The position numbers were made by a program, and so were the translations under genes. A stretch of DNA of 64,000 bases from Thermoanaerobaculaceae bacterium (GTDB taxonomy: Bacteria; Acidobacteriota; Thermoanaerobaculia; Multivoradales; UBA5704), in NCBI GenBank assembly GCA_963785165.1, contig CAWAUI010000004.1, positions 13,321 to 77,320 on the forward strand, given 5' to 3'. The notes beneath the pieces are model-generated. The model was not told the origin of the DNA. It was given only the letters and a program-made list of their open reading frames with translations, and searched no databases. Below are positions 6,227-37,680 of this stretch, in pieces (the first letter of the stretch is position 1; each line of letters begins with the position of its first letter).

Positions 6227-8176
6227 TCACCTGTCGTCCAGCACCCAGACCCCGCTCGACGTGCCCGCGTAGACCCGGCGGGGGTTCTGGGGATCGAGGA
6301 TCAGGTCGTAGACGACGCGGGCCTGCGGGCCGGGGCGCTCCTGCCACGTCTCGCCGCCGTCCCGGCTGCGGAAGATCCGGCCGTTCTCCATCGCCAGCCA
6401 GACGGTGCCCGCGATAGGAGAGGCGGCGAGGGCCGTCACTTCCCGGGACTCCAGGCCCTGCCCGATCAGGTTCCAGCTCGCGCCACCGTCCGCCGTCTTC
6501 CAGATCCCGCCACGCGGGCTGCAGCCGGAGCCGCAGACCCCGACGTAGACGAGCCGCGAATCCACCGGGTCGATGGCGAGGGCAGTGGGTTCATTGCCGC
6601 CGAGGCCCTGTTGGATCGAAGCCCAGGTCGCGCCGCCGTCCAGGCTCCGCCAGGCGGTGGCACGGGTGAACTTTCCGGAAAGAATCGTGACGCCCACCGC
6701 GTACATCGTCGACGGGGAGGAAGGGGCGAACGCCAGGTGCCTCACCCAGCCCGGGCTGGGCAGCGGCTGGCGCAGCCAGGTGGCGCCGCCGTCCACGCTC
6801 TTGACGAGATTGTTGCCGTTGCTCCACAGCGTGGTAGGACTCAGCGGATCGACCCACAGGCCGCCGGTGGGCCAGGGCGGCGCTCCTGAGCCCTCGACCG
6901 CGGTCCAGGTGGCGCCATCGTCGTCCGTCCGCCAGGTCCGTTGAGTGTCCAGAACGTAGAGGGTCGAGGGCGCCGAGGGAGCCATCGCCAAGCCGGTTCC
7001 CGGCATCGGCACGGGCACGAACGTCCAGCCCCGGCCACCGTCGGCGCTGCGGAAGAGCCCCTGGCCCGTTCGAGACGTCCAGATCACGCCCGGGTGGAAG
7101 GGGTCCACCAGCACCCGCGGAGCCTCCAGCCCGGCGAGGCTGCGATTGCGGCGCTCCCAGGTGGTGCCGCCGTCCTGGCTGGCGAAGATCCCGCCTGGGT
7201 CCGTGCCATTGGGCCTCAGGGCGGCGAAGACGGTGCCGGGAGAGGACGCCGGCACGGCCACCGCCGTTATGCCGGAGATCTCTTGAGCGGCTTCCCGCGG
7301 TCCCGCGGCCTTCCAGTGGAAGCCGCCGTCATGGCTGACGAGCAGGCCCCGGCTTTCCGTGCCCGCCCAGACCGTCCGGGAGGAGCGGGGCGACACGGCC
7401 AGGGTGACCACGGGGCTGGCCGTCGAACGGACCGCCTCCCAGGACGTCCCGGAGTCGCGGCTGCGGTAGAGGCCGCTCCCCCGGATGGCCCGGGCGCTCG
7501 CATAGAGCACCCACGGCTCCGTGGGCGAGGCCGCCACGGTGAGCACGCCCTCGGGCAGCCCGCCGCCGAGGGCGTTCCAGGTCATCCCGGCGTCGGTGCT
7601 CCGGAACAGCCGGCCGCCGGTCAGGGCGAAGACGGTGCCGCGCGGCCTGGAGACCGCCAGCAACTGGACCCGGGGATCAAACGAATTCGGCAGCTCCTGG
7701 CTGGAGCCTTGCCAGGAAGAGCCGCCGTTGGTGCTGCGGAAGACCCGGAGCCCCACCGCCGCGTAGATCCGCGAAGGGCGGGCCGGGTCCACGGCCACGG
7801 CGGACACGCCGGCTTCTTCGAGCCCCCGGCTGGCCGGGGTCCAGTGGGAGCCGAAGTCCGTGCTCTTCACGAGCCGGCTGGCGGGAGTCGAAAGGTACAG
7901 CGTGCCCGGGCGGACCGGATCGACCGCCACGTTGCTGTCGATGAACGCGCTGTGGATCGGAGTCCACGAGGCGCCGCCGTCCGTGCTCCGGAACGCGCCT
8001 TCATAGGGGATCGTGGCGTAGAGGACCCGGGCGTCCGAAGGCGCCACCGTCAGGGTCTCGATCGTGCCGCCGAACGGTCCCAGCGGCGTCCACGAGGGAG
8101 CGGCCAGAACCGGCGCGGCGGCAAAGAGGTTCAGGAAGAAGAGGAGGGACAAGGATCGGGGAAGCGAACATCGCAT
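6227..8176 (-). CDS. Secreted BNR/Asp-box repeat beta-propeller protein, paralog C
   Basis: Intact 649 aa ORF, signal peptide, WTPLGPFGG, repeated RSTDGGASW-type motifs. Confidence 0.9.
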   Translation of the reverse strand: MRCSLPRSLSLLFFLNLFAAAPVLAAPSWTPLGPFGGTIETLTVAPSDARVLYATIPYEGAFRSTDGGASWTPIHSAFIDSNVAVDPVRPGTLYLSTPASRLVKSTDFGSHWTPASRGLEEAGVSAVAVDPARPSRIYAAVGLRVFRSTNGGSSWQGSSQELPNSFDPRVQLLAVSRPRGTVFALTGGRLFRSTDAGMTWNALGGGLPEGVLTVAASPTEPWVLYASARAIRGSGLYRSRDSGTSWEAVRSTASPVVTLAVSPRSSRTVWAGTESRGLLVSHDGGFHWKAAGPREAAQEISGITAVAVPASSPGTVFAALRPNGTDPGGIFASQDGGTTWERRNRSLAGLEAPRVLVDPFHPGVIWTSRTGQGLFRSADGGRGWTFVPVPMPGTGLAMAPSAPSTLYVLDTQRTWRTDDDGATWTAVEGSGAPPWPTGGLWVDPLSPTTLWSNGNNLVKSVDGGATWLRQPLPSPGWVRHLAFAPSSPSTMYAVGVTILSGKFTRATAWRSLDGGATWASIQQGLGGNEPTALAIDPVDSRLVYVGVCGSGCSPRGGIWKTADGGASWNLIGQGLESREVTALAASPIAGTVWLAMENGRIFRSRDGGETWQERPGPQARVVYDLILDPQNPRRVYAGTSSGVWVLDDR

Positions 8177-34835: not shown

Positions 34836-35231
34836 TCACCCCGCTGACCCCGGCAACGAGAACTGGTGCGGCAGCAGCTCTGCCAGCGTCGTCTCCTCCC
34901 GCTCGTCCTGGGTGTTGACGACCAGGATGGGGAGGTCCCTGGTGAACTCGGCGAGGGTCTGGCGGCAGAGCCCGCAGGGGTAGGCGGGCGGGTGGGCGTC
35001 CGTCACCACCGCCACGGCCTGGGGCTTGCGCAGGCCCGCCGAGGCCGCGGCGGCGATGGCGTTGCGCTCGGCGCAGATGGCGAGGGCGGGGATGCAGTTC
35101 TCGACGTTGGCCGCGGCGTGGATGGAGCCGTCTTCCATGAGCACCGCGGCGCCCACGGCGAAATGGCTGTAGGGCGCGTAGGCGTGGGCGCGGGCGGCCC
35201 GGGCGGCGGCGATCAGGGGCTCCCAATCCAT
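34836..35231 (-). CDS. cdd: Cytidine deaminase
   Basis: AYAPYSHFAVGAA, NVEN, CAERNAI, PCGLCRQ. Confidence 0.96.
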   Translation of the reverse strand: MDWEPLIAAARAARAHAYAPYSHFAVGAAVLMEDGSIHAAANVENCIPALAICAERNAIAAAASAGLRKPQAVAVVTDAHPPAYPCGLCRQTLAEFTRDLPILVVNTQDEREETTLAELLPHQFSLPGSAG

Positions 35232-35348
35232 GGACAGAGGAATGTAACACGCCTCTGTGATACCGTACGGGCGCTTCCGGGCTCCCGCACCGGAGCCGCG
35301 CCCGGTGCATCCCTTCTGGAGCTTGGAGATTTGACCGACGCCGGAGAG

Positions 35349-35380
35349 GTCGCCTCCCGCGCGGAGGCGTGGATTGAAAC
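35349..35380 (+). CRISPR. Solitary type I-C-like CRISPR repeat (not an array)
   Basis: GTCGCCTCCCGCGCGGAGGCGTGGATTGAAAC: 32 bp, 7-bp stem, 3' ATTGAAAC. One copy only. Confidence 0.8.
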
Positions 35381-35410
35381 CCCTACAGTTTTTCCAGGAG
35401 GAGCACGGCT

Positions 35411-36664
<1,254 letters not shown>

Positions 36665-36695: not shown

Positions 36696-37635
36696 ATGCG
36701 ATACAAAGTAACCGTGGTGGGCGCCGGCAACGTCGGCGCGACGCGCCGCTCAGCTCGATCGCCCAGGCGGACCTCGGCCGACGTGGTGATGGTGGACGTG
36801 GCCGCGGATCTCGCGACCGGCAAGGCGCTGGACATGATGGAGTCGGCCCCGGTGCTGGGCTTCAACGCCCACATCACGGGCGGCGGCGACTACGACCCCG
36901 ACCGCCGGCTCGCACGTCTGCGTCATCACCGCCGGCCTGGCCCGGAAGCCCGGCATGAGCCGCGACGACCTGCTGGCCAAGAACACGGAGATCGTCACGC
37001 GAGGTGGTGCGCCAGCTGGTCTCGCGCTCGCCCGACACCATCCTCATCATCGTCACCAATCCGCTCGACGCCATGTGCGAGGTGGCCCGCCGGGTCTCCG
37101 GCTTCCCCCGCGAGCGGGTGATCGGCATGGCCGGCGTGCTCGACGCCGCCCGCATGCGCTGGTTCATCGCCGAGAAGCTCAAGGTCATCGGTCGAGGACG
37201 TCGACGCCTTCGTGCTCGGCGGCCACGGCGACACCATGGTGCCGCTGCCGCGCTACGCCACGGTCAACGGCGTCCCGCTGCCGCAGCTCCTGGACGCCGC
37301 CGACGATCGAGGCGATCAACGACCGCACCAGGAACGGCGGCATCGAGATCGTCAACTACTACAAGACGGGCTCGGCCTACTACGCGCCCGGCGCCTCGCT
37401 CCTACGAGATGGTGGCCGCCATCCTCAAGGACAAGAAGAAGATCCTCCCCTGCGCCGTGCTACCTCCAGGGCGAGTACGGCTACAAGGACCTCTTCGTCG
37501 GCGTCCCCTGCCAGCTCGGCCTCGCCGGCATGGAGCGGGTGGTCGAGCTCAAGCTGACGGTCGAGGAGAAGGCCCAGCTCGACAAGTCGGCCCAGGCGGT
37601 GAAGGGGCTGGTCGAGGCGTTGCCGAAAGGGGTAG
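36696..37635 (+). CDS. mdh: Malate dehydrogenase, LDH-like (several frameshifts; end approximate)
   Basis: [44 protein letters not shown]. Confidence 0.95.
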
Positions 37636-37680
37636 GAACGGCGAGAGCAACCTACAATAGAGCGTTTTCGTACCAAGCCC

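Follow-up and report, generated by a model that had tools for sequence, protein, structure and literature searches.

A single type I-C CRISPR repeat stands immediately in front of the translation-initiation region of the isocitrate dehydrogenase gene (icd) in an uncultured Acidobacteriota genome, and our alignments reveal that it forms the 3' half of an insertion of 62-70 bp, in which a spacer-like segment of 31-34 nt is followed by the repeat. We think it likely that an orphan CRISPR unit, recent and specific to this lineage and composed of a spacer-length segment and a full I-C repeat, was inserted ectopically in the intergenic region between icd and a divergent deaminase gene (cdd). The window, by which we mean the whole 64,000-nt stretch of DNA analysed, corresponds to C4:13321-77320 of this genome (G000), a 7.5-Mb assembly of 67% G+C in 7 contigs; coordinates given without a contig or locus name refer to the window.

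A solitary type I-C repeat in front of icd

The solitary 32-nt repeat, GTCGCCTCCCGCGCGGAGGCGTGGATTGAAAC, occupies positions 35349-35380 of the plus strand, begins with GTCGCC and ends with ATTGAAAC. A preliminary description of this stretch had reported one 32-bp repeat in the sense of icd, ending 30 nt before a TTG start codon, with a Shine-Dalgarno sequence (SD) at 35396-35403 and no second repeat in the window, and all of this is as described. At up to 3 mismatches the repeat is the sole match in the 64,000-nt window, none of 100 shuffled sequences yielded any match, and no second repeat was found in the window besides 35349-35380. Its structure is that of I-C repeats as described in PMC8524198: two unpaired nucleotides at the 5' end, then a hairpin with a 7-bp stem and a loop of 5 nt, and finally an 11-nt 3' overhang that ends in ATTGAAAC; the predicted fold has an energy of -13.0 kcal/mol, and the resident array repeat adopts the same fold at -12.4 kcal/mol. 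Rfam offers only a weak match, to the family CRISPR-DR9 at 18.8 bits where the gathering score is 45, and the assignment to type I-C is based not on Rfam but on near-identity to the arrays beside an I-C cas operon in the same genome. The spacing from the repeat to the icd TTG at 35411 is exactly 30 nt (35381-35410), with AGGAGGAG at 35396-35403, although exact distances may be off by one or two nucleotides in an assembly so rich in single-base indels. The features on the icd side of the locus are as follows.

35315-35348, plus strand: spacer-like unique segment, 34 nt as drawn, with an ambiguous left edge (35312-35318)
35349-35380, plus strand: solitary type I-C repeat, stem 35351-35357/35363-35369, loop 35358-35362
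35370-35380, plus strand: 11-nt 5'-handle sequence TGGATTGAAAC, the same in all 81 resident array repeats
35381-35410, plus strand: native icd translation-initiation leader with the SD AGGAGGAG (35396-35403), conserved in 11 congeners that do not have the insertion
35411-36664, plus strand: icd, NADP isocitrate dehydrogenase; TIGR00183 matches its N- and C-terminal pieces, with three apparent frameshifts
36696-37660 (end approximate), plus strand: mdh, malate dehydrogenase; TIGR01763 matches one fragment, and the gene is broken by apparent indels

The repeat belongs to a lineage-specific insertion

In an alignment of the region upstream of icd from G000 and 11 congener loci, all 11 congeners show a clean 62-column gap with both flanks collinear, including the closest relative, G005, which shares 93% icd identity and also does not have the insertion. 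MAFFT places the left border at 35318. Other relatives read ...CATCCCTACA... at this site, which gives an alternative border, with a 34-nt segment (35315-35348) plus the 32-nt repeat and a 4-nt CCCT on either side of the unit (35311-35314 and 35381-35384). Resident spacers in G000 range from 33 to 37 nt with a mode of 34 nt (35 of 79 spacers), and the segment as drawn therefore has the modal spacer length of the G000 arrays. The simplest description of the insertion is one spacer-plus-repeat unit. An array requires at least two regularly spaced repeats, and here one copy is found in the window and one outside arrays in the whole genome. The 32 nt that precede the spacer-like segment are native sequence shared with G005 and contain no repeat, and a search for a degenerate second repeat flanking the unit found none.

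The unit appears to be confined to this genome. A 131-nt query spanning the site did not recover the complete region from any of 40 congener genomes, each the one representative of its species, and its sole match was an array repeat in G002; a junction 23-mer was found in 0 metagenome contigs. Among 80 icd loci from many phyla, the 10-mer of the handle does not occur once in the sense orientation (one locus, L064, carries it on the opposite strand). Conservation upstream of icd in relatives, which the preliminary description had named as a check on a regulatory role, is thus not seen, the unit being present in 0 of 11 aligned congeners and 0 of 40 congener genomes.

On the plus strand icd is followed by mdh, and both reading frames are interrupted. 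The TTG at 35411 is credible as the icd start, as the NADP-IDH profile aligns from its position 4 at residue 7, and frame changes are then needed near 35821, 36227 and 36304. The encoded protein pieces of icd and mdh are well conserved, G005 also contains single-base indels, and marker completeness is 71%, which points to long-read consensus errors rather than pseudogenes. The closest named relatives of icd are from uncultured Acidobacteriota or Thermoanaerobaculia genomes, and none of the sequencing runs searched contains the strain, the best share of words being 0.18. In so error-prone an assembly, with three frame changes in icd, many in mdh and incomplete markers, a chimeric or mis-polished long-read consensus could have brought in an array fragment of another organism, and the repeat variant is indeed that of other species and not that of the resident arrays. 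However, the errors seen are single-base indels and not insertions of 60-70 bp, the borders are clean, the flanks are collinear and the site lies inside a 5.9-Mb contig. A collapsed array, moreover, would leave at least a repeat-spacer-repeat structure, and a second repeat, even a degenerate one, was not found. We consider an assembly artefact very improbable.

The resident type I-C system and its repeats

The solitary repeat lies at C4:48669, and a complete I-C operon (cas3-cas5c-cas8c-cas7-cas4-cas1-cas2) is located at C4:3.516-3.525 Mb, 3.47 Mb away on the same 5.9-Mb contig. The operon is directly upstream of the larger array, on the same strand, and 7 of 9 scanned ORFs gave Cas-family matches. 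Cas5c is identified by a match to the Cas5d Pfam family at 73.5 bits and by its PDB relatives, and cas3 is apparently intact. The cas2 ORF (L002:158-562, minus strand) gave a weak match covering only the first 35 of 96 profile positions at 27.4 bits; it may contain an assembly frameshift or be a truncated gene, and the adaptation module may or may not be intact. When up to 6 substitutions are allowed, the repeat is found once on the plus strand of C4, as the solitary copy, and 81 times on the minus strand, 27 times at C4:3507091-3508844 and 54 times at C4:3512317-3515858, and no copy was found on the other six contigs at this threshold. A search of the genome for cas genes and arrays with this repeat, as the preliminary description had proposed, therefore yields a complete I-C operon and 81 array repeats.

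The solitary copy is not identical to the resident repeats. Eighty of the 81 array repeats differ from it at positions 10 and 12 in the loop and 17 in the stem (29/32 identity), while one differs at two positions only; the pair at stem position 17 is U.G in the array repeats and U-A in the solitary copy. The solitary variant is, on the other hand, identical over 32/32 nt to array repeats of the congeners G013, G002 and G050, and also to those of G064, a member of another family.

The resident array itself is split in two by an insertion of about 3.5 kb (G000:C4:3508845-3512316, L003:8846-12317), which encodes an HTH protein as well as an rve integrase and an AAA_22 ATPase, the latter two fused or adjacent to each other, and looks IS21- or Tn-like. 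A truncated repeat end (…GTGGATTGAAAC) is found at the junction of this array-splitting insertion.

Promoter and leader of icd

Between cdd and the icd SD, strong conservation is confined to two TGnTANNNT motifs (35241-35266), which lie back to back on opposite strands, and this arrangement suggests a pair of divergent extended -10 promoters.

34836-35231, minus strand: cytidine/deoxycytidylate deaminase gene (cdd-like), PF00383 at 52.2 bits, divergent from icd, ATG at 35231-35229
35241-35249, minus strand: predicted extended -10 of cdd, TGTTACATT, with TGnTANNNT kept in cdd-bearing relatives
35258-35266, plus strand: predicted extended -10 of icd, TGATACCGT, from TGnTANNNT conservation

The start of cdd was set where conservation ends in the 12-sequence alignment, and the predicted -10 ends about 10 nt before this ATG, suggesting that the cdd mRNA is nearly leaderless. 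The icd element keeps TG, T1, A2 and T6 in 12 of 12 aligned sequences, a count that takes in L009 and L012, whose upstream neighbour differs. Placed from conservation alone, the icd transcription start would lie near 35273, upstream of the repeat. Given this start, the icd leader would measure about 138 nt with the unit, as against about 70-75 nt in relatives, and the unit is probably transcribed inside the icd 5' UTR. One precondition of the regulatory idea put forward earlier thus holds, as the repeat is sense-oriented and lies downstream of the sole conserved promoter-like element. A generic sigma-70 scan of 35100-35500 returned 0 sites, and no promoter-like or terminator-like site was found by scan within these limits. 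A promoter built from the TTGAAA of the repeat was also considered and rejected, as no -10 is present at a workable spacing and the scan gave 0 sites.

These observations bear on the possibility that the unit is an inert DNA scar, with a repeat that is untranscribed in this orientation or unprocessed and only lengthens the leader. The icd promoter is derived from conservation with 0 sites in the generic scan, the fold of the whole icd leader is no more stable than those of shuffled sequences (z -0.89) and the state of cas2, of which only the first 35 residues match the profile, is uncertain, and all of this would agree with an inert scar. However, the TGnTANNNT element upstream is conserved in all 12 sequences, just 30 nt without a conserved -10 separate the repeat from the start codon, and the hairpin and handle match the needs of Cas5c as given in the passages on its substrates in PMC8524198. 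An inert scar is accordingly an unlikely outcome in our judgement.

Predicted processing by Cas5c

The passages of PMC8524198 on substrate recognition place the Cas5c cut behind nt 21 of the repeat, where the 7-bp/5-nt hairpin has its 3' base. Recognition is described there as focused on the stem base together with U22-G23-G24 and the 3' overhang, with neither the pentaloop nor the 5' overhang at its centre, and the enzyme as remaining on the 5' handle after cutting. The solitary copy differs from the resident repeats at positions 10, 12 and 17, which avoid the stem base, the cleavage site and U22-G23-G24 with the 3' overhang. Since the three differences spare these determinants, cleavage is expected at the following site.

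35369-35370, plus strand: predicted Cas5c cleavage site after repeat nt 21, based on the passages in PMC8524198

Judged from its sequence, the solitary repeat has the features of a Cas5c substrate and should be cleavable. The cut after nt 21 and the 11-nt handle, both given as known in the preliminary description, agree with the same passages. Counted from the end of the handle, the SD occupies nt 16-23 and the start codon nt 31-33, and a Cas7-covered stretch of 34-35 nt would span both. The unit's own spacer cannot become a guide, since the upstream fragment would have a 3' hairpin but no 5' handle. A Cascade on the handle-bearing icd leader would match only the DNA of that leader, with AAC in the PAM position, and PAM-flanked (TTC/TTA) near-matches of this pseudo-spacer in the genome remain at chance level (2 at 3 mismatches, as against 0-5 in 10 shuffles).

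Such geometry could be taken to indicate an evolved cis-regulator, in which Cas5c would cut the icd-mdh leader, Cas5c and Cas7 on the handle would cover the SD and start codon, and TCA-cycle output would follow Cas levels. The genome has an I-C system, a conserved promoter element stands upstream of the sense-oriented repeat, the substrate determinants of PMC8524198, as far as its passages give them, are intact, and both the SD and the start codon lie within one spacer length of the handle. In addition, the parts of bioRxiv 2024.12.27.630466 that deal with I-C single repeat-like elements indicate that these give handle-bearing, Cascade-bound RNAs. However, the unit is unique to G000 (0/11 and 0/40 congeners), and relatives without the repeat conserve the same native 30-nt leader, so that the geometry follows from the insertion point. 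Because Cas5c stays on its product, any effect on an abundant mRNA would also be limited by Cas protein abundance. We therefore hold an evolved cis-regulator to be improbable. Of the link between CRISPR and the TCA cycle that had been suggested earlier, the preconditions (the I-C system, the orientation and the determinants) stand, whereas the link itself finds no backing in a unit absent from all congeners, a junction absent from metagenome contigs and a target search at chance level. We likewise give little credence to a Cas-responsive switch or sink in the icd-mdh leader, by which TCA enzyme synthesis would be tied to Cas abundance or a metabolic mRNA would throttle Cascade assembly.

A second solitary repeat lies between cas3 and cas5c

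Scanning G000 for the handle at up to 1 mismatch gave 130 matches, 48 of them outside arrays, and of these 48 two have the exact handle: the icd copy and a copy between cas3 and cas5c. Two one-mismatch handle matches with an adjacent hairpin were also inspected and looked like chance. The cas3-cas5c copy lies on the strand opposite to these genes and consists of a hairpin and the exact 11-nt handle at L002 6639-6669 (C4:3522438-3522468), with a TATAGT-type -10 upstream, a degenerate 8-bp hairpin and a pseudo-spacer at 6670-6700. It ends in a strong hairpin followed by a U-tract (fold z -2.64, with 0 of 200 shuffles folding as well). With its target, the whole element spans L002:6558-6730 (G000:C4:3522357-3522529) on the plus strand. 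The pseudo-spacer is complementary, with three single-base gaps, to L002 6558-6587 on the other strand, a site that is preceded by TTC and lies about 85-110 nt upstream; in gapped alignment, 0 of 200 shuffled pseudo-spacers reached this pairing score. An ungapped target search of the genome with the same pseudo-spacer returned 23S rRNA genes only, which we attribute to chance. Just beyond the TTC-flanked target, a TTGACA-N18-TAGGGT promoter-like site is visible by eye on the minus strand. The same architecture is present in G047, with 17 nt of pairing, one mismatch and TTC, and G048 has a similar element. These likenesses suggest that the cas3-cas5c element is a conserved crlRNA/CreR-like solitary repeat, matching the I-C crlRNAs in the parts of bioRxiv 2024.12.27.630466 that describe them.

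The icd copy and the cas3-cas5c class have only the handle and the hairpin in common. Like the crlRNAs (CreR/CreA; Shmakov et al. 2023), as far as the relevant parts of bioRxiv 2024.12.27.630466 describe them, the icd copy has a repeat-like element, the exact 11-nt handle, a Cas5c cut (predicted here) 3' of the hairpin and a downstream pseudo-spacer. Known crlRNAs, according to the same parts of that preprint, occur within cas operons or next to them. They are conserved, their hairpins are degenerate, and their pairing with a TTC/TTA-flanked promoter target is partial. Unlike them, the icd copy is a perfect, unconserved repeat located 3.47 Mb from cas, with no target and no promoter or terminator of its own. 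The cas-adjacent location, the PAM-flanked target and the conservation in relatives that mark crlRNA/CreR elements are thus all missing from it.

The preliminary description had also offered a Cas decoy as an alternative, and the closest precedent is the RNA anti-CRISPR (Racr) class, including RacrIC1, an I-C Racr that is co-transcribed with a protein gene in the account of Camara-Wilpert et al. 2023 (PMC10651486). A self-encoded decoy would place the repeat in an abundant housekeeping mRNA to titrate Cas5c and Cas7, damping the cell's own I-C immunity or autoimmunity. The passages of PMC10651486 on solitary repeats describe Racrs, among them the tested I-C one, as sequestering Cas subunits into aberrant complexes, and the icd repeat is full length with an exact handle, is single, lies outside arrays and is of the subtype of the host cas operon, as are the Racrs of those passages. 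In contrast, Racrs are described there as elements of viruses and plasmids that often directly follow a promoter of their own and have acr genes as neighbours, while the icd copy lies between native housekeeping genes, without a promoter of its own in our scan and with a spacer-length segment upstream. A virus, provirus or plasmid setting is not found, as the flanks are cdd and icd, collinear in 11 congeners, and the segment has no significant phage or plasmid match. Further points against a decoy are that the unit is not conserved, that the 81 array repeats have stayed uniform and that cas3 is apparently intact. Like the regulatory idea, the decoy alternative is physically plausible but draws no support from conservation (0/40) or from the target analysis, and we see only a slight chance that it is correct.

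Solitary copies in related genomes

The repeat family is present in 12 of 41 genomes of the genus and 45 of 300 genomes of the order; the 300 include the unpublished genome G164. Among the low-count genus genomes examined, no solitary unit was found in a housekeeping leader; the three with 1-3 matches were set aside as array fragments at contig ends (G007, G049) and a degenerate mini-array (G047). Of the singleton-like genomes of the order, five were followed up. Four of them proved to be mini-arrays (G071, G299), an array at a contig end (G295) and a two-repeat fragment at a contig start (G265), and the fifth, G260, carries one repeat alone, 163 nt from the end of a contig; low counts occur in further genomes of the order, for example G253, G263, G040, G076 and G082. 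The count of other solitary copies proposed in the preliminary description thus produced one further exact-handle element in G000, but that one is cas-adjacent and none was in a housekeeping leader in the genus cases examined.

I-C mini-arrays of 2-3 repeats occur away from the main arrays in relatives, namely L101 (G047:C56:675-1113), L123 (G299:C34, two repeats, with a TATAGG-like -10 in front) and L120 (G071:C174), and L121 (G260:C83) is a single-repeat case away from the main arrays. The icd unit resembles such mini-arrays, and orphan or degenerate arrays in general, in that CRISPR repeats lie far from cas genes, but mini-arrays contain at least two repeats and the icd unit contains exactly one repeat and one spacer-length segment. 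In our literature search, which was not exhaustive, no metabolic gene with a CRISPR repeat in its leader came up, and the supplementary lists of solitary repeats in PMC10651486 and bioRxiv 2024.12.27.630466 could hold chromosomal cases.

Origin of the unit

The source of the spacer-like segment was sought widely. The segment has no match among the 79 resident spacers and nothing significant in its own genome, and its best matches to phages (E 6) and plasmids (E 5) are not significant. An exact 31-mer of the segment was found 0 times in each of genome_contigs, viral_contigs and metagenome_contigs, a 61-nt query against the 300 genomes of the order gave short chance-level matches only, and none of the 40 congeners has an array with this spacer beside the repeat. 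The left edge of the insertion (35312-35330) does contain an exact 19-nt match to a conserved stretch of an ABC-transporter ATPase gene (G000:C4:4913097-4913115; BLAST E 6e-4), and the same 18-19-mer is present in G273, G056 and G268. An origin from this gene was rejected, as 262 of 4000 random 38-mers from the same contig (about 6.6%) have a non-self exact match of at least 19 nt, and the 19-nt match is probably due to chance. An origin from an array leader was also discarded, as by eye the segment has no resemblance to the leader ends of four arrays.

Nivala et al. reportedly described, in 2018, off-target spacer integration by Cas1-Cas2 that creates 'neo-CRISPR' loci. In such events a spacer should be inserted and a piece of native DNA as long as a repeat duplicated. 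The icd unit is similar in that CRISPR-derived DNA sits at a non-CRISPR chromosomal site, but here a genuine repeat was inserted and only the 4-nt CCCT is common to the two borders. With no duplicated repeat-length native target site, we rejected an off-target integration product. The repeat variant differs from the resident one, which leaves two possible donors, foreign DNA and a former state of the lineage's own array. As for the route of insertion, our guess is that an array fragment was captured during break repair or template switching.

Discussion

Our analysis leads us to regard the unit as an accident that is tolerated rather than as an evolved regulator. A spacer-plus-repeat unit landed immediately 5' of the conserved 30-nt translation-initiation block of icd, and it probably persists because the promoter, SD and start codon were left intact. 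Transcription from the conserved promoter, about 75 nt further upstream, would run through the unit into icd; the transcript would fold into the canonical 7-bp/5-nt hairpin, which the resident Cas5c would be expected to cut between 35369 and 35370, so that the icd-mdh mRNA would then begin with the 11-nt handle. Cascade assembled on the icd leader would have no PAM-bearing DNA target. The absence of conservation, of an own promoter and of a PAM-flanked target means that no evolved function is indicated. Of the alternatives listed in the preliminary description, the third, a dispersed remnant, fits best, and it can now be sharpened to a recent spacer-plus-repeat unit in the icd 5' UTR, without conservation and without a target.

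Several observations do count against an accident. The repeat is undecayed, being identical over 32/32 nt to arrays of other species, it is sense-oriented and it abuts the initiation block, and G000 appears to use a solitary repeat for regulation in its cas locus. Each of these points would be equally expected of a young insertion that had come through selection for viability, but taken together they leave room for a functional reading. If that reading were true, a Cas-responsive icd leader would be a very young host-side counterpart of phage Racrs and cas-locus crlRNAs.

As a single event in one uncultured Acidobacteriota genome, the icd unit is a curiosity and not a system. Even so, it indicates that a spacer and its repeat can arrive together, as a whole unit, at a site far from the array, and the clean structure of one spacer plus one repeat may, more tentatively, be the trace of an undescribed way for single CRISPR units to escape from arrays. 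According to the passages of Shmakov et al. 2023 on this point, repeat-like sequences are depleted in intergenic regions outside CRISPR-cas loci, so that stray copies are expected to be rare and short-lived; the presumed reason for the depletion is that Cas nucleases would cut host transcripts. The tolerated unit described here is a natural, undecayed example of such a 'forbidden' repeat copy, in the leader of an essential central-metabolism operon and with the matching Cas5c present, and, should the source organism or a reconstituted system become open to study, the locus offers a direct test case for what a stray repeat costs the cell.
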